Source: Nostoc sp. CHAB 5824
Lineage (GTDB): Bacteria; Cyanobacteriota; Cyanobacteriia; Cyanobacteriales; Nostocaceae
DNA: 32,000 bases
Assembly: GCA_020829665.1 (NCBI GenBank)
Contig: JAIVFT010000026.1
Span: 39,799 to 71,798 of the forward strand
Direction of reading: 5' to 3'
In this document: positions 942 through 32,000 of the stretch, one piece after another
Numbering within the stretch: position 1 is the first letter of the stretch
Layout of the letters: each line of letters begins with the position of its first letter
Notes under the pieces: model-generated
Seen by the model: only the letters and a program-made list of their open reading frames with translations
What the model was told of the DNA's origin: nothing
The model's database searches: none
Made by a program: the position numbers and the translations under genes

Positions 942-1265
942 TCATGCACTAGCAGCTAGCTCTGATTCAGGTAGAAAAGCTAAAACGATATCTGTTGGAG
1001 AAACACCCATCCCTATCAAATCTTGGGTTATGCCGTGTTCTATGCCGTCATATTCTATATAAACCTTACCATTTTGTAGCGTGACATAAATTAGATTTCC
1101 TCGAACTCGCCGTCCTCTATCCCAACCCACTTGCATCAAAGCATACCTATCGTGCGTTTCATCAAAGATTGGCTCAAGTCGAATATCTCCATGCGAGGGA
1201 CGAAGTTTAGCATATTGTATAATTATCTGCTTGACTATTTCTCGATAGGTCGTGTTGGTATCCAT
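942..1265 (-). CDS. xisI: XisI family protein
   Basis: 107 aa. The Y..IVK...YA, MQVGWD, G..YIE.D and DIVLAF pattern is typical of XisI. It lies immediately downstream of, and overlaps, an xisH-like frame. Confidence 0.85.
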   Translation of the reverse strand: MDTNTTYREIVKQIIIQYAKLRPSHGDIRLEPIFDETHDRYALMQVGWDRGRRVRGNLIYVTLQNGKVYIEYDGIEHGITQDLIGMGVSPTDIVLAFLPESELAASA

Positions 1266-1699
1266 TGTATGACCTCTACTGTTTTTAAATTGATGATAAT
1301 TAATTTCAGTGGCATTTCTGTAATTACTAGTTCGCCAATTGGTTCATTGAAAATATTGCTATAGATAGTATCTGTAATCGCTAAATAGAGTTCTCGCTCT
1401 GGTTCTATTCTACTAAGTAAAAGCTGATAGAGTGTATACTGTCCAATCGCTTGTTCTAAATCAGCAATAACAGATTGACCGCGAAAATCTTTAATTTCAA
1501 TTGCTATTCGCTGATTTTCTTTTGTTGCACCGATAAAATTTCCTTGAGCTTGGTTAACTGTTGATGATAAAGTAGCAGCCAAATCTATAAATAAGAATCT
1601 ATCCCCGTAAGAAATAACATAAGGAGCGTCAGTTATTTTCCAACCATCTTTAATAATCGCTTGCTAGACTAGATTGTGAATGCTATCTCTTGGTGGCAT
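1235..1699 (-). pseudogene. xisH: XisH family gene interrupted by an in-frame TAG (complement of 1664-1666)
   Basis: Translation from the ATG at 1699-1697 gives MPPRDSIHNLV*QAIIKDGWKITDAPYVISYGDRFLFIDLAATLS..., continuous with the track ORF 1235-1582. The N-terminus matches the XisH pattern (..KD..H..V..A..KDGW.IT.DP) except for the stop at codon 12. Confidence 0.75.
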
Positions 1700-1903: not shown

Positions 1904-3877
1904 CTATGTGCCTTCCCGCAATTTATCTAATACGCTTCTATCTTCCAATGTCGAAGTATCTCCAGATACCTCTTGTCCGGCGGCTAGATTCCGCAGCAAG
2001 CGGCGCATAATCTTACCCGATCGCGTTTTGGGCAAAGCGTCTGTAAAGCGAATTTCTCCAGGACGAGCGATCGCACCAATTTCTTTGACAACGTGCAGTT
2101 TGAGTTCTTTACTCAGTTCCTCACTTCCCTGATAAGTGCCTTCTAAAGTCACAAAAGCAACTACTTCTTCGCCCTTAAGCTCATCCGGTTTACCTACTAC
2201 CGCCGCTTCTGCAACTGCTGGGTGAGAAACTAAAGCTGATTCTACTTCCATTGTACCGAGCCGATGTCCTGATACATTTAATACGTCATCAATCCGACCC
2301 ATTACCCAGAAGTAGCCGTCCTCATCAAGTCTAGCGCCATCACCAGCAAAGTAAGTATAGTTACCATCTTTGGGTGGAATGTGTTCCCAATAGGTGCGGC
2401 GGAAGCGTTCTGGATCGCCGTAGACTGTCCGCATCATTCCTGGCCAAGGATGGCGCACTGCTAGATAACCGCCTTCGTTATTGGGTACGGTGTTTCCTTC
2501 TAAATCCACGACATCTGCAATAATTCCTGGGAAGGGAAGAGTTGCTGAACCAGGTTTGGTGGGAATTGCTCCTGGTAACGGTGTTATCATGATACCGCCG
2601 GTTTCCGTTTGCCACCAGGTATCAACAATTGGACAGCGATCGCCACCAATTACTTTGTGATACCACATCCAAGCTTCTGGGTTAATCGGTTCGCCGACGG
2701 TTCCCAGCAAACGCAACGAAGACAAGTTTCGCGCATTGGGATGTTGTTCGCCCATCTTAATAAATGCCCGAATTGCTGTAGGTGCTGTATAAAAAATATT
2801 CACGCCGTATTTTTCAATTACATCCCAGAAACAGCCAGGATTAGAAGCACGGGGCGCACCTTCGTACATCACCGTGGTTGCACCGTTGGAAAGAGGCCCG
2901 TAGACAATGTAGCTGTGTCCCGTAATCCAACCTACATCGGCGGTACACCAATATACATCTGTGTCTTGTAGGTCGAATATCCACTTAGTGGTGATATGGG
3001 TATACAAATTATAACCAGCAGTTGTATGCACTACACCCTTCGGTTTGCCAGTGCTGCCAGAAGTGTAGAGAACAAACAGCATATCTTCACTGTCCATAGG
3101 TTCGGCGGGACAATCTGCTGATACTCCTTTTTGCAAATCATGCCACCAATGATCGCGTCCACCCAACTGCATATAAGTTTCCTGTCCAGTGCGCTTGACA
3201 ACTAGGACATTTTCAACGCTAGGAACAGCACCATCAGCTAATGCTTTATCTACCTGTTCCTTCAAAGGAACGATCGCATCTTTGCGCCAACCACCATCAG
3301 CCGTGATTACCAGTTTAGCTTTGGCATCAATTAAGCGATCGCGCAAAGCTTCGGCACTAAAACCACCAAATACTACGCCGTGGGGTGCGCCAATTCGGGC
3401 ACAGGCTAACATAGCGATCGCAGCTTCGGGAATCATCGGCATATAAATACCAACGCGATCGCCTTTTTGTACACCCAGTTGCTTCAATACATTGGCAAAT
3501 TGGCAAACTTCCCGATGCAGTTGGGCGTAAGTTAGGGTACGCGAATCACCTGGTTCTCCTTCCCAAATCAATGCTGCTTTATTTTTGCGCCAGGTAGTGA
3601 GATGTCTGTCAAGGCAGTTGTAAGAAATATTAATTTTACCGCCAACGAACCACTTAGCAAAAGGTGGTTGCCAATCTAGTACTGTATCCCATTTTTGGAA
3701 CCATTCTAATTCTGTTCCAGCCAAATCTGCCCAAAATTGCTGTGGATCGGCTTTGGCTTTGTTATAGAGGCGCTGATACTCTTCCAGGCTTTTGATATGG
3801 GCATTTTGCGAGAATTCAGAGGCAGGATGAAATAGGCGATTCTCTTGGAGGATTGATTCTATAGTTGGTTGAGACAT
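1904..3877 (-). CDS. acs: Acetyl-CoA synthetase (AMP-forming)
   Basis: 657 aa, full-length Acs pattern: [29 protein letters not shown]......DGY....GR.DDV...SGHR.G..E.E and the C-terminal [11 protein letters not shown]. Confidence 0.97.
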
Positions 3878-8312: not shown

Positions 8313-10445
8313 ATGAACCAAAGCAACCAAGATAAAGCCAAGGGCTGGCAAAATAAGGTTGAGGGTGGAACTGTTTATCAAGGCGATATTCGTATCTACA
8401 ATTCCCCTACTGGGCAGTTATACTCATCTCCTCCAAATAATATTCCTTATCGGGGTGTTGCGAACTTTGTCGGGCGGAATGAGAAACTTGTAGAACTACA
8501 TAAAAAATTGCTGCAAAATGACAACGCGGCAATTTTGGCTGTGGCTGGTATGGGAGGAATGGGTAAAACTGAACTGGCGACACAATACGCACAGCGCAAC
8601 AAAGTCAATTATCCTGGTGGGCTTTGCTGGTTAGATGCCAGAAAACTAGATTTAGCAGCAGAGATTGTGGAGTTTGCTAAGTTTTACATGAAACTGGAAG
8701 TACCGCGAACCTTATTGACTTCCCAGGAACAAGCAAAATGGTGCTGGCATAATTGGCAACCACAAACAGGACTAGTATTAGTAGTATTGGATAATGTTGA
8801 CGATGTGACTAACTGGGAAAATTCTCGCCAAGTTCTGCCAACAGATAACCGCTTCTGTATATTGATGACAACTCGGTTGCGAAATCTCGGTTCAACAGTT
8901 CAACAGATAACTTTGAATGAACTCTCACCAAACGATGCTTTAAATTTGTTGACAGCTTTGTTGGGTGAGAATGATAGGCGGGTGCAACGGGAACCACAAA
9001 CGGCAGCAAATTTATGTAAATGGCTGGGATATCTGCCTTTAGGTTTGCAATTAGTCGGCGCGTATTTGGCAGAAGATCCAAATTTGTCTTTGACAGAGAT
9101 TTTACAGCAATTACCAGCCCAGCAAAAATCTCAATTGGAAGCCGTATTTGAATTAAGCTGGCAACAACTCGATTCTATAACACAGCGTGTCGGTGAGTTG
9201 TTGAGTTTATTCGCCCCAGATATCATTCCTTGGCAAATAGTTGAATCTGTTAGTCAGCAGTTAAATTGGGCGAAGGTAGATGTTGACGAGGCGAGAAAGC
9301 AACTTTATAAGCGTCATTTAATTCAAAGCGTAGCAGAAGGAGAAAGTTGCTATAAAATTCATCCTTTAATTAGGGAGTTTTTGCAAGGAAAACAGGTAGA
9401 GTCAAAAATCGCCAACGAGTTACAACAAGCGATTTCCACAATTTTTGTAGAAATTGCTAAGACAATACCTGACTCTCTCACTATTGAGCATATCAAGTCA
9501 GTGCAACTGGCAATTCCCCATTTGGCTGAGGTTGCACAAAATCTGACTGCTGCTGTACAGGATGAAGATTTAATTTACATTTTCGTTGGCTTGGGTAGAT
9601 TCTATGAAGAACAAGGTTTATATGCCCTAGCAGAATCTTGGTGTCAGCAATGTTTATCAACGGTGCAAACTCGTTTGGGAGAAGAACATCCCAATGTTGC
9701 CACCAGCTTCAACAACCTGGGAGCAATTTACCAATCTCAAGGACGCGATGACCAAGCCGAACCGCTTTATCAGCAAGCTTTAGCACTGAGAAAACGCCTG
9801 CTGGGAGAAGAACATCCCTCTGTCGCCACCAGCCTAGCCTGCTTGGCAAATATCTACTCTTCTCAAGGACGCTACGACCAAGCCGAACCGCTTTATCTGC
9901 AAGCTTTAGAACTGAGAAAACGCCTGCTGGGAGAAGCAAATCCCTCTGTCGCCACCAGCCTGAACAACCTGGCATTACTCTACGAATTTCAAGGACGCTA
10001 CGACCAAGCCGAACCCCTGTTTCTGCAAGCTTTAGAACTTAATAAACGCCTGCTGGGAGATGCACATCCCTCTGTCGCCACCAACCTGAACAACCTGGCA
10101 AGTCTCTACAAATCTCAAGGACGCTACGACCAAGCCGAACCCCTGTTTCTGCAAGCTTTAGAACTTAATAAACGCCTGCTGGGAGAAGCACATCCCCATG
10201 TCGCCACCAGCCTGAACAACCTGGCAAATCTCTACAATTCTCAAAGACGCTACGACCAAGCCGAACCCCTGTATCTCCAAGCTTTAGAAATTCGTCAGCA
10301 GGTGTTTGGGGTAAATCATCCCAATACGGTTACTGTTCGGGAAAATCTAGAAAATCTTCAAGCTCAAATGAGTGCTAACCGTAAAGTTAAGAATAATGCT
10401 AATAATAATTCCTTGTGGGAGAAGTTTTTAGGGTTATTTGAGTGA
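8313..10445 (+). CDS. NLR-like STAND ATPase: N-terminal signalling motif, NB-ARC domain, then TPR (TPR_12-type) repeats
   Basis: 710 aa. Walker A is GMGGMGKTELA and Walker B is LVLVVLDNVDD, with NB-ARC-like LPLGLQLVGAYL. At least five 42-aa TPR units follow (HP.VATSLNNLA.LY.SQGRYDQAEPL.LQALEL.KRLLGE). Confidence 0.9.
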   Translation: MNQSNQDKAKGWQNKVEGGTVYQGDIRIYNSPTGQLYSSPPNNIPYRGVANFVGRNEKLVELHKKLLQNDNAAILAVAGMGGMGKTELATQYAQRNKVNYPGGLCWLDARKLDLAAEIVEFAKFYMKLEVPRTLLTSQEQAKWCWHNWQPQTGLVLVVLDNVDDVTNWENSRQVLPTDNRFCILMTTRLRNLGSTVQQITLNELSPNDALNLLTALLGENDRRVQREPQTAANLCKWLGYLPLGLQLVGAYLAEDPNLSLTEILQQLPAQQKSQLEAVFELSWQQLDSITQRVGELLSLFAPDIIPWQIVESVSQQLNWAKVDVDEARKQLYKRHLIQSVAEGESCYKIHPLIREFLQGKQVESKIANELQQAISTIFVEIAKTIPDSLTIEHIKSVQLAIPHLAEVAQNLTAAVQDEDLIYIFVGLGRFYEEQGLYALAESWCQQCLSTVQTRLGEEHPNVATSFNNLGAIYQSQGRDDQAEPLYQQALALRKRLLGEEHPSVATSLACLANIYSSQGRYDQAEPLYLQALELRKRLLGEANPSVATSLNNLALLYEFQGRYDQAEPLFLQALELNKRLLGDAHPSVATNLNNLASLYKSQGRYDQAEPLFLQALELNKRLLGEAHPHVATSLNNLANLYNSQRRYDQAEPLYLQALEIRQQVFGVNHPNTVTVRENLENLQAQMSANRKVKNNANNNSLWEKFLGLFE
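9681..10310 (+). repeat. Five tandem 126-bp units encoding 42-aa TPR repeats
   Basis: Units start at 9681, 9807, 9933, 10059 and 10185, each exactly 126 nt apart. Long stretches are identical at the nucleotide level (for example caaggacgctacgaccaagccgaacc). Confidence 0.9.
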
Positions 10446-10502: not shown

Positions 10503-10635
10503 AATACGGTTCGGATAAGATCCCCCCGCCTACGGCGACCCCCTTAAAAAGGGGGTAAAGAAAAAAATAGCCCCCCAATTTATCGGGGGGTTGGGGGGAT
10601 CTTCCTGGGCAAAATATCACTAACCGAACCGTATT
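10503..10635. mobile_element. MITE-like palindromic element, copy 1
   Basis: Terminal inverted repeats aatacggttcgg / ccgaaccgtatt are flanked by the direct repeat ggttcgactccc (10491-10502 and 10637-10648). The inner core 10519-10601 is bounded by gatcccccc / ggggggatc and contains the hairpins cccccttaaaaaggggg and ccccccaatttatcgggggg. Confidence 0.6.
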
Positions 10636-10785
10636 AGGTTCGACTCCCTTCCCTACGGGACGCTACGCGAACGACTGCGCTCAGGGCCAGCCGCTCACCA
10701 GCCGCGCAGTGCATCGCTGGGGACTGGGTGAAAAGTCTTTTTGTGTTTCGGTTTTATCCTCCTCAAATTAAAATTGAACAAAAAT

Positions 10786-10989
10786 AATAAATGACACCCC
10801 GAATTCAATAAACGACACCCCGAATTCAATAAACGACACCCCGAATTCAATAAACGACTTCCCGAATTCAATAAACGACTTCCCGAATTCAATAAACGAC
10901 ACCCCGAATTCAATAAACGACTTCCCGAATTCGATGAACGACACCCCGAATTCAATGAACGACTCCCCGAATTCGATAAACGACACCCC
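10786..10989. repeat. 21-bp tandem array: 9 full copies plus 1 partial copy, each with a GAATTC site
   Basis: The unit is gaattcaataaacgacacccc, with copies starting at 10801, 10822, 10843, 10864, 10885, 10906, 10927, 10948 and 10969. Two main variants occur (cgacacccc and cgacttccc). Confidence 0.95.
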
Positions 10990-11007
10990 CCTTAATCCCC
11001 CCTTATA

Positions 11008-11182
11008 AAGGCTACGGTGTACACACAAGTCTTCTAGAGTTGCGTCACAGGCTTTTGATCCCCCCAACCCCCCTTAAAAAGGGGGGCAAAAAGCTCTCAA
11101 AGTCCCCCAATTTATCGGGGGATTTAGGGGGATCAATACACATTTTGCACCCAGCAAAAAGATGTGTGTACACCGTAGCCTT
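11008..11182. mobile_element. MITE-like element with perfect 20-bp terminal inverted repeats enclosing core copy 2
   Basis: aaggctacggtgtacacaca (11008-11027) is the exact reverse complement of tgtgtgtacaccgtagcctt (11163-11182). The inner gatccccc...gggggatc core lies at 11057-11134. Confidence 0.6.
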
Positions 11183-13210: not shown

Positions 13211-13375
13211 GGGGGACAAGGGGACAAGGGGACAAGGGGACAAGGGGACAAGGGGACAAGGGGACAAGGGGACTTGTGAGAACTTGCAACAAGTCTTTCC
13301 CCTTGTCCCCAATTCTCCTTGTCCCCTTGTCCTCTTCCCAATGCCCCATTCCCCATTCCCCATTCCCCACTCCCT
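13211..13375. repeat. Composite STRR hairpin module: 8-mer GGGGACAA tandem repeats, an acttgcaacaagt core, then a C-rich arm with CCCCATT heptamers
   Basis: GGGGACAA occurs 7 times plus a partial copy at 13212-13273. The core is gacttgtgagaacttgcaacaagtc. The right arm is ccccttgtccccaattctccttgtcccc...ccccattccccattccccatt. It lies between the convergent terC-like gene and ndk. Confidence 0.85.
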
Positions 13376-16151: not shown

Positions 16152-16270
16152 GATTGGGGATTGGGCATTGGGCATGGAGAAGAGGACTTGGGGACAAGGA
16201 GAATTGGGGACAAGGGGACTTGCAACAAGTCTTTCCCCTTGTCCCCTTGTCCCCCTTGTCCCCATTCCCT
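16151..16270. repeat. Composite STRR hairpin module between convergent speA and the nucleotidyltransferase gene
   Basis: The left arm gggcattgggcatggagaagaggacttggggacaaggagaattggggacaagg (16163-16215) is followed by the core gacttgcaacaagtc and a right arm of ccccttgtcccc repeats. Confidence 0.85.
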
Positions 16271-20624: not shown

Positions 20625-20790
20625 AGTAGGGGGCAGGGGGCAGGGGGCAGCGAGCAGGGAGCAGGGGGAGCAGGGGGAGATGAGGGGGACTTGGGGACAA
20701 GGTGACTTGTGAGAACTTGCAACAAGTCACCTTGTCCCCAATTCTCCTTGTCCCCAAGTCCTCTTCTCCATGCCCAATGCCCCGCATCAC
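20625..20790. repeat. Composite STRR hairpin module between convergent pdxH and azoR
   Basis: GGGGGCA-type repeats at about 20628-20690, then the core gacttgtgagaacttgcaacaagtc. The right arm 20730-20782 is the exact reverse complement of 16163-16215. Confidence 0.85.
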
Positions 20791-23567: not shown

Positions 23568-23739
23568 AATACAGTTTGGTTAACTTGCTTTATCTCTCGA
23601 AGATCCCCCCAACCCCCCGATAAATTGGGGGGCTATTTTTCTTCCTCTATCCTCTTAAAAAGGGCAGGGCTGTTTTTATTCCTCTACCCCCTTAAAAAGG
23701 GGGTCGCTGCAGGCAGGGGGATCTTATCCGAACTATATT
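23568..23739. mobile_element. MITE-like palindromic element, copy 3 (inverted relative to copy 1, with an internal duplication)
   Basis: Terminal inverted repeats aatacagtttgg / ccgaactatatt. The core 23602-23723 is bounded by gatcccccc/gggggatc and carries ccccccgataaattgggggg and ccccttaaaaaggggg. Confidence 0.6.
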
Positions 23740-26621: not shown

Positions 26622-27230
26622 ATGAAAATGACCACGCTGCTAATCCAAACTGAAAGCACACCCCTAAAGGTAAATTTACCCTCCCTTGTGCAGATGACAA
26701 ATGAGCAGTTTTACGAATTTTGTCAAGCCAATGGAGATTTGCGAATTGAGCGCACTGCTAATGGGGAAGTTATCATCATGCCACCAGCTTTTTCAGATAC
26801 GGGCAACCGTAACTTTAACATTGCTGCACAGCTTGGGAATTGGACTGAACAAGATGGCACTGGCATAGGCTTTGACTCTAGTACAGGTTTTACACTACCC
26901 AATGGAGCAATGCGTTCCCCTGATGCTTCTTGGATTGAACTGGAGCGCTGGAATACCTTAACAGATGCACAAAAAGCTTCATTTGCACCAATTTGTCCTA
27001 GCTTTGTGATTGAGTTACGCTCCTCTAGTGATCGCTTGATAAAATTACAGGAGAAAATGCAGGAGTACATCGATAACGGTGCATCACTAGGCTGGTTAAT
27101 TGATCGGCAAAATAGAAAAGTCTACATTTACCGTCCGAATCGAGAAGTTGAAATTTTGGATAATCCCGAAGCAGTTAGTGGCAATCTAGAATTACCAGGG
27201 TTTATCCTACGGATGGGCAAAATTTGGTAA
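26622..27230 (+). CDS. Uma2 family (DUF820) endonuclease
   Basis: 202 aa. F..F......R.E....GE.I.M.P, SPDASWI and PSFVIELRSSSD......KM.EYI.NG..LGWLID. Confidence 0.85.
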   Translation: MKMTTLLIQTESTPLKVNLPSLVQMTNEQFYEFCQANGDLRIERTANGEVIIMPPAFSDTGNRNFNIAAQLGNWTEQDGTGIGFDSSTGFTLPNGAMRSPDASWIELERWNTLTDAQKASFAPICPSFVIELRSSSDRLIKLQEKMQEYIDNGASLGWLIDRQNRKVYIYRPNREVEILDNPEAVSGNLELPGFILRMGKIW

Positions 27231-27241
27231 TTTGAGTCTTC

Positions 27242-27333
27242 CTAATGAGAAACTTGTGTTTTGAGAACGTTAGCAATTGCCTCAAGTATTCGCTGAGAGT
27301 AAAGTGATGTTCGTTGTTCGAGGAGCGATCGCA
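27242..27333 (-). pseudogene. Orphan fragment of the aroK 3' end with a 54-bp in-frame internal deletion
   Basis: 27242-27294 aligns to 31551-31603 and 27295-27333 aligns to 31658-31696, with a few mismatches. It would encode RSLLEQRTSLYSQ|RILEAIANVLKTQVSH*. It ends on the HIP1 site gcgatcgc and directly abuts the xisI stop codon (27334). Confidence 0.8.
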
Positions 27334-27669
27334 TTACGCTACGCCATAATCTGTATACTGACGCTTGTATGGAGCTTGCAAACCCAAGACAATATCCTCT
27401 CGTGGTACTCCCATCATCACTAATTCCTCTGCCGGATTGCGATCGGTTAAATTCTGTTGCAGCCAGATTTTGCCATCTTTAATATCAAAATGCATCACGC
27501 ATCGATAAATACGATTAAATCCTTGCCAACCGACATTCATCCATTGATAATGATTGCGTTCTGTGTCTAAAATGAGTTGGACTTCGACATTGTTATCCGA
27601 GACATCATCACTGGCATAGTTCGTCAACAATGTTTTAACATATTCTTGATATTTTGCTAGTTTATCCAC
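27334..27669 (-). CDS. xisI: XisI family protein
   Basis: 111 aa. Y.EYVK.LL..YA, W.NVGW, DIKDGKIW.Q.N and EDIVLG are typical of XisI. Confidence 0.85.
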   Translation of the reverse strand: MDKLAKYQEYVKTLLTNYASDDVSDNNVEVQLILDTERNHYQWMNVGWQGFNRIYRCVMHFDIKDGKIWLQQNLTDRNPAEELVMMGVPREDIVLGLQAPYKRQYTDYGVA

Positions 27670-28073
27670 TCTACAATCACCTCATCTACTAGATTGTAAA
27701 CAATTAATAGCACCTGGTACTGTTTGAGCGCAGTTTGAGTAAACTCCAGTTGGAAAAATGTTTTGTACGTATCCAATGGAACTGCTAAGTATAAGACTCG
27801 CTCTGGTTCATATCCTGCTAATGCTAGACGGTAAGTAAGAAATTGTCCCAAAGCAGAGTAAAAATCTGTAATGGCCGAGGGATTTAAAAAGCTTTTGATT
27901 TCAATTGCTATTTTTTCATTTCCTTTTTCTACGGCAATTATTTTCTCTACGCCTAAATCAATTTGGAAGTTTACTTACCCAAATTTAAACTTTAATGGAT
28001 CGCTCGTAATTATCTATTGTTCTTTTTGCAAAGCTTTTTTAACTGATTCATAAAAAATATCTTTTGCAGACAC
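27657..28073 (-). pseudogene. xisH: XisH family gene with two in-frame stops (TAG at 28016-28014, TAA at 27977-27975)
   Basis: Translation from the GTG at 28073 gives VSAKDIFYESVKKALQKEQ*IITSDPLKFKFG*VNFQIDLGVEKIIAVEKGNEKIAIEIKSFLNPSAITDFYSALGQFLTYR..., continuous with the track ORF 27657-27851. The total of 139 codons is typical XisH length, and the first stop sits where the conserved W of KDGW is expected. Confidence 0.8.
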
Positions 28074-28207
28074 AGTTAGAAAAAATATTCTTTTCCGATT
28101 TGATATTCCCCATGTTAATATGCTTTGGCATATTGCACTAAATAGATTTGCAAAATTATGTAGGTTGGGTGCAGCATTAGCGGAACCCAACATTATTTAA
28201 TGTCGAG

Positions 28208-28345
28208 TTGGCATTTCATTTGCACCTGATTTGTCCCAGCTTTGTGATTGAGTTATGCTCCTGGTGCCGCAGCTACGCCCGTCGTAGACATCGCCTGATA
28301 AAATTACAAGACAAAATGCCGGAGTACTGGTTTGATAATGCTATG
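28208..28345 (+). pseudogene. Uma2-family gene remnant, truncated at both ends, with a 21-nt net insertion
   Basis: ttcatttgcacc.gatttgtcc.agctttgtgattgagtta.gctcc ... ctgataaaattaca.ga.aaaatgc.ggagtac aligns to 26978-27070 of the intact Uma2 gene. The inserted segment tggtgccgcagctacgcccgtcgtagacatcgc replaces tctagtgatcgc. The remnant is cut off by the histidine kinase 3' end. Confidence 0.7.
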
Positions 28346-30095
28346 CCGCTTTCACTTGAGATACAGCCTGTTGAACTGGAATTTCAATGATGAACTCTGT
28401 GCCATTGCCTGGACTAGAAACACAATTCAGAGTGCCATGATGCTTATCAACAATCACTTGACGAGCGATCGCCAAGCCTAATCCAGTTCCTTTGCCAACT
28501 CCTTTGGTGGTAAACAAATGCTCAAATATCTTTTGCTTGACATCATCTGTCATGCCAATTCCATTGTCTTTAATTCGGACAGTGACTGATTGTTCATCCT
28601 CTGTCAACCCCGTTTTGATCGTAATTTGATTTGGATGTTGTTTAAGATATTCAGAACTTTGCCTTTGATTCGATTCTTCCAGAGCATCGATCGCATTTGC
28701 CAAAATATTCATGAACACTTGATTAAGCTGTCCAGAAAAACAAGTGATCGCAGGAATCTTGTCGTATAATCGTACGACCTCAATCGCTGGACGTAGCTCA
28801 TTGGCTTTCAGGCGATATTTGAGGATGAGTAGGGTACTATCCAGTCCTTGATACAAATTAAATTGCACCGGATGCTCTGTGTCCGAGCGAGAAAACGTCC
28901 GCAAGCTGGTGCTGATATCCCCAATCCGATCTGTTGCCCCTTTCATAGACAGAATCAGTTTCGGCAAATCTTCAGCTAAAAACTCCAGGTCAATCTCCTC
29001 TGCATGGTCTTGAATATTGGATGAGGGATGAGGATAGGCTTGTTGATAGTGGTGCAAATGATTCAGCAAATCTTGGATGTATTCAGTTGCGTTACTGAGG
29101 CTACCCTTGAGAAAACCGACTGGATTGTTGATTTCGTGGGCAACGCCAGCCACCAGATTGCCCAAAGCAGACATTTTTTCACTTTGAATTATTTGCATTT
29201 GAACTTGCTGCAAGTCTTGGATTGCTTTCTGTAAATCTTGAGCTTGCTGCCGTAATTGCGCTTCTGATGCCAGTAAAGCAGCTTCTGCTTGTTTGCGCTG
29301 TACAACTTCTTGTTCAAGTTGCTGGTATGCCTCTACTCGTGTAGCAGCCGCTTGAATCGTATGGGCAAGAAATTGGATTTCGTTATCTGGCAATCCACTG
29401 GGCATAACAAAATGGTCAATGCTTTGACTGTCGGTGACAGCTTTATTCAAACGTTGGAGGGGATGTAAGACCGATCGCTGAATCATCACCGTCATCAGTG
29501 CCAGAATCGCTGACATCCCAACGAGTAGGGTAAAGGTAGAGGTAGAGAAGGTTTTCCACGCTTGCTGTTGTAGTTCTTCGACATCGAGAATGGCGATCGT
29601 CATTCCGCGTCGGTTTGCCTGACCAAACAGGGTGCTGCTAAAGGGCAAAATTTCTACTAATGTGGCCTTACCATTGATCGTGGTTCTTAAACTTGTTTCT
29701 GAACCCGTCTGAGAAGCCTGTTCTAATACTTGAGTCAATTCTGGATGAATTGAAGCATAAGGCGGATTTTGTAATGCGGCTCCACTCCGAGCCAGGGTTT
29801 GTCCATTGGGACTGACGATCGCCACCTCTACGACCGTTGGCAGTGTAGCGTAGTTTTGTACCACTCGCTTAATAATGCTCGTATTCCCTAGTTCGATTAA
29901 TCCTTCCGTGGAAAACCCGACCCCCTGGGTAATCGATTGGGCACGTTGTTCTAGTTCTTGCTCTAGCCTTGATTGAATCAAGAAGTAGTTCAATCCCAAC
30001 GTGGTTAAGCCGACCGTTGCTAGAGAAATACCAAAACCCATCAGTAGTTGATAAGATAAGTGACTTTTGGATGACTTCTGGCTCATGACTTCCAT
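28341..30095 (-). CDS. Sensor histidine kinase (two TM segments, periplasmic domain, coiled coil, HisKA-like domain and HATPase_c)
   Basis: H-box GVAHEINNPVGF, N-box FMNILANAIDA, and G-boxes DNGIGM and GTGLGLAI. An alternative start at 30086 (MSQKSS) gives an ATGA overlap with the upstream stop. Confidence 0.9.
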   Translation of the reverse strand: MEVMSQKSSKSHLSYQLLMGFGISLATVGLTTLGLNYFLIQSRLEQELEQRAQSITQGVGFSTEGLIELGNTSIIKRVVQNYATLPTVVEVAIVSPNGQTLARSGAALQNPPYASIHPELTQVLEQASQTGSETSLRTTINGKATLVEILPFSSTLFGQANRRGMTIAILDVEELQQQAWKTFSTSTFTLLVGMSAILALMTVMIQRSVLHPLQRLNKAVTDSQSIDHFVMPSGLPDNEIQFLAHTIQAAATRVEAYQQLEQEVVQRKQAEAALLASEAQLRQQAQDLQKAIQDLQQVQMQIIQSEKMSALGNLVAGVAHEINNPVGFLKGSLSNATEYIQDLLNHLHHYQQAYPHPSSNIQDHAEEIDLEFLAEDLPKLILSMKGATDRIGDISTSLRTFSRSDTEHPVQFNLYQGLDSTLLILKYRLKANELRPAIEVVRLYDKIPAITCFSGQLNQVFMNILANAIDALEESNQRQSSEYLKQHPNQITIKTGLTEDEQSVTVRIKDNGIGMTDDVKQKIFEHLFTTKGVGKGTGLGLAIARQVIVDKHHGTLNCVSSPGNGTEFIIEIPVQQAVSQVKAA

Positions 30096-31141
30096 CCTGC
30101 CATTGCTTCATTGATAACGGCTGGATCAATCTCTACGTCTTGCCGAATCACCCGACCATGACGCGGATCTGCTTGGAGAAGTTGGACAATTTCTGCCTTT
30201 GCTGAATTGAGACGACCATCTGCTGCAAACATCCGCTTGTTCAAAGTAATATCTCCTTTTTTTAGCCCAGCATAATCACTGGCAAAAGACTCACTACTTT
30301 GTCCCAGTTTTTTTCCAACTGCGTTAAATACTTCTGTCGGCTGGGTTTCAACTGCGTGCATCACATCAAACCATGCCAGCATGAATTGCTTTAGTTCCGC
30401 TTTTTTAGCTTTCATTATGTTGTTACTGGACATTAAGATATCAATCACCAGACTGTCTACTTGCTTTGTGGTATGAATCACATTGCCCTTAATGCTCTTC
30501 GCTATTTCTCCTAGCATCGGTTCCCATAGCACAGCAGCATCGATCTCACCTGTCCCAATTTTCTGGGCTGCTACTTCATTGGAGTAATCTAAAATCTGAA
30601 CTTCAGAGGGTTTGATTTGATGGGCTTTCAGAGCTTCCAGCAAAATTAAATGGTTGACGGTTCCTAACTTTGCTCCTACTCGTTTAGCACGCAGGTCTTG
30701 CAGCGATTTAATTGCTGTCTTGGCAACAATCCCGTCAGCTCCAGCAGAAATATTTGTTATGATTAACACCACGGGTTTACCATTGCCCGGATCAACCTGC
30801 ATCACGTCCCAGAGGGAAGCAAATGCTGCATCTAATCTTCCTTGCATAACAGCCCGACTGGAATCTTGCTGGTTATCGAATCGCACAAACTCAACCTCTA
30901 GCCCCCGCTGCTTGAAGATATCTGAGGATTGGGCATAGAGTGCAATGTCAAATCCCACCCAGCTTGTAATTCCGACCCGGAGCTGTTTGAGAGATTGGTT
31001 TTGCCCAAGACTACAGGCATTGATCACAAACGTAAGGGAAAGGGCGATCGCAAACAAACAGAAAAAGGCAGGCTTGATACCTAACCTCAAATTTTGCTTC
31101 CACCAGATACTTAATGTGTCAATAATCTGGGCAACTTTCAT
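30083..31141 (-). CDS. ABC-type substrate-binding protein (NMT1/TauA/SsuA-NrtA-like), N-terminally anchored
   Basis: 352 aa. It has an N-terminal hydrophobic segment with a Cys (FVINAC), and the pattern LRVG...W.G......A....IF...GL.VE.V.F. Confidence 0.8.
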   Translation of the reverse strand: MKVAQIIDTLSIWWKQNLRLGIKPAFFCLFAIALSLTFVINACSLGQNQSLKQLRVGITSWVGFDIALYAQSSDIFKQRGLEVEFVRFDNQQDSSRAVMQGRLDAAFASLWDVMQVDPGNGKPVVLIITNISAGADGIVAKTAIKSLQDLRAKRVGAKLGTVNHLILLEALKAHQIKPSEVQILDYSNEVAAQKIGTGEIDAAVLWEPMLGEIAKSIKGNVIHTTKQVDSLVIDILMSSNNIMKAKKAELKQFMLAWFDVMHAVETQPTEVFNAVGKKLGQSSESFASDYAGLKKGDITLNKRMFAADGRLNSAKAEIVQLLQADPRHGRVIRQDVEIDPAVINEAMAGWKS

Positions 31142-31550: not shown

Positions 31551-32000
31551 CTAATGAGAAGCTTGTGGTTTAAGAACGCTAGGAATTGCCTCGAGTATTC
31601 GCTTGGCAATGTCTTCAGGCATATCTCCCTCTCCCACGGTGATGTGCAAATCGGCTTGAGAGTAAAGTGGTGTTCGTTGTTCGAGGAGCGATCGCAATTT
31701 ACCTTTGGGATCAACATCTTGCAGTAGTGGTCTTGTGGTATCCTCAGCTAAACGGCTGTAAATGAGTTCAACTGGCGCATCTAGCCACACTATCAAACCG
31801 TGGTGCAGGTAACCCCAATTTTCTCGCCGCAGTACAATGCCTCCACCAGTTGCTATAGTCAACTTTGTAATAGCACAAACTTGTGAAAGCACGTCGCTTT
31901 CTAATTGGCGAAACCCTGCTTCACCAACTTCTGCAAATAACTGATTGATAGATTTACCTGTTACTTGGGCAATGACATTATCGGTATCGACAAACCTATA
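31551..32000 (-). CDS. aroK: Shikimate kinase; partial, the N-terminus lies beyond the window end
   Basis: The frame is open from 32000. My translation reads ...YRFVDTDNVIAQVTGKSINQLFAEVGEAGFRQLESDVLSQVCAITKLTIATGGGIVLRRENWGYLHHGLIVWLD...PLLQ, which fits the AroK pattern. Confidence 0.9.
   Translation of the reverse strand, partial: YRFVDTDNVIAQVTGKSINQLFAEVGEAGFRQLESDVLSQVCAITKLTIATGGGIVLRRENWGYLHHGLIVWLDAPVELIYSRLAEDTTRPLLQDVDPKGKLRSLLEQRTPLYSQADLHITVGEGDMPEDIAKRILEAIPSVLKPQASH

Follow-up and report, generated by a model that had tools for sequence, protein, structure and literature searches.

An orphaned aroK gene end joined at HIP1 to an xisH-xisI cassette in Nostoc

We analyzed a 32,000-nt stretch of DNA from Nostoc sp. 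CHAB 5824 (contig JAIVFT010000026.1, positions 39,799 to 71,798; hereafter, the window), in which 92 nts at positions 27242-27333 lie directly against the stop codon of an xisI gene and resemble the 3' end of aroK, the shikimate kinase gene present in the same window. An earlier note on this DNA had regarded the segment as a displaced copy of the resident aroK end that belongs to, or was captured by, the adjacent xisH-xisI (xisHI) cassette. Here, we found that the 92 nts are a recombination scar, the orphaned end of a gene, and that they do not serve as a working part of the cassette. The locus as a whole is probably the joint of a cassette-bearing and a cassette-free haplotype, which would have been connected by an illegitimate crossover at the microhomology offered by a HIP1 octamer (GCGATCGC), so that the old aroK tail was left orphaned.

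Self-comparison of the window by BLAST divided the similarity into two blocks: positions 31551-31603 match 27242-27294 (88.7% identity over 53 nts, E = 1e-12), and positions 31657-31696 match 27294-27333 (97.5% over 40 nts, E = 3e-12). As the earlier note had read it, the fragment corresponds to the last 146 nts of aroK (48 codons and the stop) minus an in-frame stretch of 54 nts, and a GCT microhomology is found at the deletion junction. On the minus strand, which also carries aroK, xisH and xisI, the orphan comprises the first 40 nts of the tail (27333 to 27294, starting with T plus HIP1) and its last 53 nts including the TAG stop codon (27294 to 27242). The resident aroK lies 4.2 kb away in the same orientation. 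Its product has a Pfam SKI domain (E = 3e-41); the upstream part (31697-32000) is cut by the window end, beyond which the gene extends, whereas the functional tail from T plus HIP1 to the stop codon (31551-31696; stop at 31553-31551) is an N-type allele (..VLKPQASH) that continues into its own downstream intergenic region.

The boundary of the fragment on the cassette side is precise. The xisI stop codon occupies 27336-27334, base 27333 follows it immediately, and the HIP1 octamer occupies 27325-27332, which agrees with the junction described earlier. The corresponding HIP1 in aroK is at 31688-31695, and the same octamer opens both stretches. The cassette end, TAA-TGC(GATCGC), is joined here to aroK T-GCGATCGC; beyond the T that precedes HIP1, the end of xisI and aroK are no longer homologous, and the junction is a short microhomology with no extended homology. 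A total of 35 HIP1 sites are present in the 32 kb, and chance alone would bring a repeat boundary to within 1 nt of the end of a HIP1 site in approximately 0.7% of cases per junction. In this window, HIP1 is located exactly at a rearrangement junction twice, once at aroK and once at acs (see below).

To place this junction among related organisms, one genome per species was scanned with an XisI alignment, which yielded 80 loci; these were mapped by tblastn and by a repeat search comparing the downstream flank of xisI with the upstream 6 kb. The arrangement with xisHI directly after aroK, which the earlier note had suggested looking for in other strains, was observed in 28 related genome loci, mostly from Nostoc and many of them from lichen cyanobionts, all of which have aroK, xisH, xisI, 'TAA/TAG T GCGATCGC' and the aroK tail in this order. 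Moreover, an identical XisI protein is encoded beside aroK in other assemblies, and about 30 species of Nostoc share the scar. A full orphan tail of 145 nts was found in nine loci (L004, L015, L017, L018, L020, L025, L031, L034 and L037) and the version lacking 54 nts in 17 copies, including that of the window, while the orphan has been trimmed or lost in L003, L006, L010, L011 and L017. In relatives of classes A and C, direct repeats of 146 nts derived from the gene 3' end flank the insert, compared with 92 versus 146 nts in the window. These observations support the view that the association between the aroK tail and xisHI is no coincidence. Chance similarity or an assembly artefact is refuted by the comparative data, as the same structure recurs in about 30 independent assemblies, complete genomes among them, and both matches within the window are significant; we give this explanation practically no weight, common as HIP1 and short repeats are in this genome.

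The origin of the fragment became evident from cassette-free genomes, which were found via a look-up of AroK homologues. In Nostoc sp. TCL240-02 (L085) and Nostoc sp. UHCC 0252 (L097), the aroK stop codon is followed by 11 nts, the stop codon of a convergent Uma2-family gene and then argB. The window fragment, the 11-nt spacer between the orphan stop and the Uma2 stop (27231-27241, the same as in the cassette-free genomes) and the end of the complete Uma2 gene (26622-27230, plus strand; PF05685, E = 2e-42), which converges on the ancestral aroK, follow that arrangement colinearly, base for base. The fragment therefore marks the old aroK end, and the gene was what got separated from it. In addition, the last 53 nts of the fragment are identical to the orphans of other species at 48-51 of 53 positions, compared with 47 of 53 for the aroK of its own genome. 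It is thus orthologous to the orphans of other species and no recent copy of the resident gene, and the idea of a displaced local duplicate has to be given up. The tail of UHCC 0252 is almost identical to the orphan of L034, which would be predicted by a recent loss and by a recent gain of the cassette alike.

Allelic variation in the tail provides further evidence. The last ten codons occur in two types, ..VLK(T/P)Q(V/A)SH (KT/KP type) and ..(I/V)LKK(A/T/P)VSH (KK type), both of which are functional AroK C-termini elsewhere across the Nostocales. Among the tails directly upstream of the left end of a cassette, 24 of 29 are of the KK type and two more are mosaics. By comparison, none of the 32 tails without a following cassette (every orphan, the aroK genes of three cassette-free genomes, and those of the window and L006) is of the KK type (Fisher p = 2e-12, a descriptive figure, as the copies are related and not independent). 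Because the tail types split by cassette neighbor, the orphan is not a decayed duplicate of the gene-attached tail, and the two represent separate alleles. Physical linkage to the cassette is seen for the functional allele, which lies upstream of xisH, and not for the orphan, and a putative incoming tract would differ in allele from the resident sequence that it duplicates (KK vs KT/KP). In the part of the repeat upstream of the tail ends, copies are more alike within genomes (0.916) than between genomes (0.890), a mild homogenisation. Divergence is faster among the full orphans (A-A, 0.856) than among the copies in the gene (B-B, 0.919), as if the orphans were unconstrained. Both features fit gene conversion acting on a non-functional copy.

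The same data bear on the alternative that the structure arose by a local duplicative insertion at the aroK HIP1 in one genome, where repair synthesis would have duplicated the 146 nts between two staggered breaks, one at HIP1 and one at the stop codon. The two tail types would then have arisen later, the dead copy by divergence and the live one by allele exchange. Such an event would explain why direct repeats flank the cassette exactly from HIP1 to stop at both aroK and acs and why the first ~110 nts of both copies are alike within genomes, and the tandem cassette of L020 shows that local unequal exchange has taken place here. However, the orphan end is a bona fide KT/KP allele, with which functional AroK proteins of cassette-free Nostoc and of other genera terminate, and the linkage between allele and neighbor is nearly perfect. 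We also know of no mechanism that yields target duplications of 146-170 nts. On balance, we consider local duplication rather unlikely, although it is the strongest of the competing explanations.

In the scenario that we favor, haplotype 1 would have had a KK-type aroK whose stop codon was followed directly by the 0.78-kb xisH-xisI cassette, and haplotype 2 a cassette-free KT/KP-type aroK followed by Uma2. A single illegitimate crossover with 3-9 nts of microhomology would have connected the xisI stop plus TGC (possibly TGCGATC, as in L005) with aroK T-GCGATCGC, landing on the HIP1 that opens the last 146 nts of aroK. Most likely, the incoming DNA came from another strain and its far end was anchored by ordinary homology in aroK, and we infer that the process was homology-facilitated illegitimate recombination (HFIR). 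The gene would have retained a complete tail, and the other tail would have become a non-functional orphan that later lost 54 nts by a microhomology deletion. The event may be dated to the ancestor of a large clade within Nostoc. If the two tail repeats then recombined with each other, the cassette could be excised again, which would give rise to the cassette-free genomes nested in the clade. A role for HIP1 would be in line with previous work: the octamer has been linked to illegitimate and site-specific recombination and to a precise SDR5 insertion inside HIP1 (PMC4390886, PMC5861425), and it has been reported to raise transformation much as Chi does and in dependence on methylation (bioRxiv 10.1101/2024.09.10.611283; see also 10.64898/2026.06.24.733823).

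Further examination of the cassette outside the aroK locus showed that the tail is not its cargo. Over the 740 nts between the start of xisH and the stop of xisI, the cassette has 95%-identical copies in a Stigonema ocellatum metagenome-assembled genome and in 'Scytonema hofmanni' UTEX 2349, and orthologous Nostoc copies of the cassette are 93-96% identical, no closer than the Stigonema and Scytonema copies. In unrelated contexts, the homology begins ~40 nts upstream of xisH (TGGRGAATATCAAATC...TCTAACT) and ends at the xisI stop plus TGC. The 0.78-kb unit (27334-28113 in the window) has sharp ends that are shared by copies in unrelated contexts (L014, 5557-6336; L021, 5557-6336), and its conserved left flank (TGGGGAATATCAAATC...TCTAACT; 28074-28113, minus strand) is common to them. 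Judged from these sequences, the 95% identity in unrelated contexts implies a recent transfer across families. No aroK sequence was detected at either cassette end in L014, L021 and L013, which contain 95%-identical copies. Because the same cassette occurs elsewhere without aroK sequence, and because four relatives with the cassette at acs have no tail copy, the tail is not part of what the cassette carries. The link between tail and xisHI that the earlier note had drawn is therefore real as an association, as shown by the 28 loci, but not as a component of the cassette. Gene tails were also considered as a general hallmark of xisHI pairs and rejected, since the approximately 50 other loci are flanked only by small dispersed intergenic repeats rich in HIP1. 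A general association with HIP1 was not convincing either: of 50 other contexts, ~3 have the octamer within 20 nts of the xisI stop, where ~1 would be expected.

These results also speak to a self-integrating element, in which xisHI with a replacement tail would target HIP1 sites in gene 3' ends, similar to the way in which islands target tRNA genes. The reaction would be carried out by XisI together with XisH, which has a nuclease fold, or by a recombinase supplied in trans. The repeats do have an attL/attR-like geometry derived from a gene 3' end with the gene left intact, a functional tail allele is linked to the cassette, and the cassette ends are sharp and conserved with 95% identity across families. 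XisH has been placed among the PD-(D/E)XK nucleases (PMC3424549), and the precise SDR5 insertion inside HIP1 is on record (PMC4390886). On the other hand, the cassette contains xisH and xisI only, with no transposase or integrase, and no recombinase, integrase or transposase domain, including any XisF-type serine recombinase near xisHI, was detected among the 30 open reading frames (ORFs) tested across the 32-kb window. Neither target duplication nor inverted repeats were seen at the cassette ends. Moreover, copies elsewhere lack the aroK tail and have a left flank without HIP1, HIP1 occurs near the xisI stop in other contexts at a rate close to chance, four relatives have the acs cassette and no tail copy, and xisH is broken in half of the loci. 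It is thus improbable, in our opinion, that the cassette integrated by itself, and a haplotype joint at HIP1 remains the explanation that we prefer.

The second xisHI pair of the window had been described as having the same geometry at acs, and this parallel holds in part. The last 170 nts of acs are repeated (736-905 vs 1905-2074, 95.3% over 170 nts in the window self-BLAST), and both copies of the acs tail begin at HIP1 (898-905 and 2067-2074). The copy, which runs on the minus strand from HIP1 through the stop codon, is not fused to the cassette but located 36 nts downstream of the stop codon of xisI-1. This xisI is intact (942-1265, minus strand), its neighbor xisH-1 (1235-1699, minus strand) carries an in-frame TAG at 1666-1664, and both lie downstream of acs (1904-3877), which is complete and encodes 657 aa. 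The two xisHI pairs are indeed strongly diverged, as stated earlier, with only 26% identity between the XisI proteins of the window. Searches for identical proteins returned no record for XisI-1, Acs or the substrate-binding protein encoded in the window. No acs tail copy is present in four relatives with the same acs-xisH-xisI-TPR order (L089, L090, L092 and L094). The last codons of the acs copy show changes of a synonymous type relative to the resident gene (QEGT* vs REGT*) and share states with more distant acs alleles; from these codons, the copy looks like another allele and not like a fresh duplicate.

The aroK locus appears to have been rearranged further after the junction was formed. 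In L009, L083 and others, the order is aroK-cassette-orphan-Uma2, whereas the window and L006 have aroK, a substrate-binding protein (SBP) gene, a histidine kinase (HK) gene, a Uma2 fragment, the cassette, the orphan and Uma2. In L017, the order is aroK-cassette-tail-SBP-HK-...-Uma2, and in L004 (5765-9850) the aroK-cassette junction occurs twice and flanks the SBP-HK block. L020 (5431-8665) contains a tandem cassette, the second of which is partly deleted, together with three copies of the aroK tail. In the window, a 409-nt intergenic stretch separates the aroK stop from the NMT1-type SBP gene (30083-31141, minus strand), which forms, with the HK gene (28341-30095, minus strand), the 3.4-kb block that parts aroK from the cassette in the window lineage. 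The fragment of a second Uma2 allele (28215-28327, listed on the plus strand) begins 13 nts past the HK stop codon and aligns with 26978-27068 at 71.7% identity and with an indel of 22 nts; L006 carries the same copy, which there reaches from the Uma2 stop codon. In L017, the first 24 nts of the Uma2 fragment are followed directly by the orphan end, and in L004, 28 nts of it are followed by sequence from within xisI. Because of these remnants at the deletion scars, both appear to be deletion derivatives of a two-cassette form. L020 and L004 point to an ancestor with two cassettes and to frequent unequal recombination at the locus.

Two routes to the arrangement in the window can be proposed. 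It may have arisen from the two-cassette form, whose first two tail copies would have recombined with each other. As a second possibility, a cassette-bearing haplotype might have recombined with a haplotype having SBP-HK between aroK and Uma2, which would also account for the second, diverged Uma2 allele fragment upstream of xisH. By either route, the SBP-HK block and the Uma2 fragment would have been left between aroK and the cassette, placing the orphan 4.2 kb from its gene. The order among the arrangement classes is narrowed by the derivation of L017 and L004 through deletion. In one metagenome contig, SBP-HK adjoins a different Uma2 gene.

Several observations weigh against a haplotype joint as outlined here. 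First, a donor haplotype with a KK-type aroK and cassette and no orphan was not found among the loci, and L010 and L011 look like deletion derivatives; the model is also symmetric with respect to which partner was resident. Second, no cassette-free genome with the order aroK-SBP-HK-Uma2 was found, and a metagenome scan with the SBP yielded only two loci, neither of them beside aroK. Third, the aroK tree nests the cassette-free genomes within occupied ones, and their empty sites may therefore reflect secondary loss and not the original state; for the same reason, the cassette was probably present in the clade ancestor. Fourth, at acs, too, the stop codon marks the exact end of the repeat, with ~200 nts still in front of xisH, which is explained only if the cassette unit at acs starts at the stop codon. 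Fifth, in 16 genomes the last 53 nts of the 54-nt-deleted orphans are 92.5% conserved, compared with 84.5% for the third codon positions of aroK in the same genomes. This high conservation is not predicted by a purely neutral and purely vertical scar.

The last observation would be expected if the fragment were retained for a function, such as a terminator or 3' untranslated region for the convergent xisI and Uma2 genes, or a small RNA. The deletion being in frame and the copies being free of internal stops would also agree with a function. Nevertheless, no stable structure was predicted on either strand (z = +1.4 and 0.0), no Rfam match was obtained in the window, and the fragment has no start codon. 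The full orphans, moreover, diverge faster than the gene copies, and the fragment has been trimmed or lost in the several genomes listed above. A retained function therefore appears very improbable to us.

The genes of the cassette have had different fates. In copy 2, which adjoins the orphan, xisI is intact (27334-27669, minus strand, 111 aa; PF08869, E = 6e-45; PDB 2nlv, E = 1e-69), and xisH is a pseudogene (27657-28073, minus strand) with in-frame stops at 28016-28014 (TAG) and 27977-27975 (TAA). For XisI, PF08869 covers positions 1-110 of 110 (copy 1, E = 1e-31). With stops masked, both window XisH copies match the PF08814 profile over its full length (E = 4e-51 and 5e-45), and an intact XisH orthologue matches PDB 2inb/2okf. 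Thus, XisH and XisI match solved structures of fdxN excision factors, and neither gave hits to defence-system models or NCBIfam naming. Both xisH copies of the window are family members by descent but probably no longer functional. Across the 80 loci, which were chosen through xisI so that counts of intact xisH and xisI carry an ascertainment bias, xisH is intact in only 40, having been broken repeatedly by different stops, frameshifts and a recurrent deletion of ~330 nts. Its inactivation has occurred independently many times over (loci L001-L083). In contrast to xisH, xisI is almost always intact, and its codon positions 1 and 2 are ~98% identical versus 89% for position 3, which indicates purifying selection.

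A more far-reaching conjecture would be that xisHI pairs are unrecognised selfish cassettes without transposase or integrase, which settle after the stop codons of housekeeping genes and spread from strain to strain and across families via recombination at HIP1 junctions, possibly started by cutting through XisH, dragging or replacing gene 3' ends as they move, with XisI kept as an immunity factor or antidote once XisH has decayed. We regard this as unlikely, if slightly less so than self-integration by the cassette.

Other features of the window were also noted. Uma2-family (DUF820) genes or fragments lie beside both xisHI cassettes, and they also adjoin the SBP-HK block in the metagenome contig (window 4775-5503, 26622-27230 and 28215-28327; loci L089, L094 and L095). 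Within the Uma2 fragment at 28215-28327, the extra segment of 22 nts contains CCCGTCGTAGACATCGC, a motif that recurs in the flanks of L068 and L070, and it looks like a small dispersed repeat inserted in the coding sequence. Between this fragment and the cassette, an imperfect palindrome (GTAGGTTGGGTGCAGCATTAGCGGAACCCAACA) is located at 28161-28193; it resembles a miniature inserted repeat, and L006 has no palindrome there. Dispersed intergenic repeats of 100-130 nts (13227-13354, 16163-16256 and 20656-20783) are 76-86% identical, and a perfect 42-nt inverted pair (23599-23640 vs 10563-10604) is separated by 13 kb. A gene for an NB-ARC plus TPR protein (8313-10445) contains internal repeat units of 126 nts with 82-86% identity, and it is adjoined by 21-nt tandem repeats (10768-11067) that read as SFIEFG repeats on the minus strand. 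A Uma2 gene next to xisHI has also been published for the Lyngbya hox region (PMC2674450).

What the locus offers is, first of all, precision: the scar fixes to the base the joint between an xisHI cassette and a housekeeping gene, namely a HIP1 octamer. The allelic difference between working tail and orphan favors an exchange among strains over local duplication. In addition, about 30 genomes display gain, loss, tandem duplication and decay of one cassette, which makes the locus a natural case for two questions, the role of xisHI pairs outside the fdxN element and that of HIP1 in recombination or gene transfer. It also provides a warning for annotation, as short gene-tail fragments beside xisHI pairs should be read as recombination scars and not as cassette cargo.

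Among known systems, one close parallel is provided by HFIR in transformable bacteria such as Acinetobacter and Streptococcus pneumoniae, in which homology anchors the incoming DNA at one end, the join at the other end uses 3-10 nts of microhomology, and the product contains foreign DNA together with a duplication or deletion of recipient sequence. The aroK locus likewise has one microhomology junction and a putative incoming tract of a differing allele, the process being suggested here only by the anatomy; the difference is that the microhomology is HIP1, to which the efficiency of transformation and recombination in cyanobacteria has recently been tied (bioRxiv 10.1101/2024.09.10.611283; 10.64898/2026.06.24.733823). 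Islands and prophages that integrate into the 3' ends of tRNA or protein genes bring a replacement 3' end, which leaves attL/attR direct repeats. The two cases share an insert flanked by direct repeats of the gene 3' end, a complete gene, and a displaced end that stays beside its original neighbor; there are also alleles without the cassette, which can be regenerated when the repeats recombine. At aroK, however, there is no integrase, the repeat is 146 nts long with allelically different ends, the cassette occurs elsewhere without a gene tail, and the junction is a ubiquitous 8-nt palindrome rather than an att core. Free-standing homing endonuclease genes, such as seg and mob of phage T4, spread with co-conversion of flanking markers. 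The xisHI cassette is similarly a small intergenic unit with a nuclease fold, patchy in distribution and allele-linked to the adjacent gene end, and its nuclease gene is often decayed. Distribution, ends and linked alleles would be only indirect signs of site-specific cleavage by the cassette; moreover, homing leaves no duplicated gene tail, and XisI is without a counterpart.

The protein families themselves are best known from the fdxN element of Anabaena PCC 7120, which is excised by XisF, XisH and XisI according to Ramaswamy et al. 1997 (cited in PMC2674450 and PMC4853749). The cassette has the same two families, with xisH overlapping xisI in one operon, but it has no XisF-type serine recombinase nearby, and its xisH is a pseudogene. 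Nor is a gene interrupted here: aroK is complete to its stop codon with the full SKI domain end, and acs is complete. Pairs of xisHI without xisF occur in many non-heterocystous bacteria, where their function is unknown (PMC2674450, PMC4853749). Finally, for HIP1, PMC4390886 and PMC5861425 review HIP1-bordered excision or illegitimate recombination, plasmid recombination in PCC 7002, and the SDR5 insertion. These cases share with the aroK locus an octamer placed exactly at the junction. They comprise deletions, plasmid events and tiny repeats, whereas the aroK locus presents a coding cassette that is joined inside a housekeeping gene and has become fixed in a clade.

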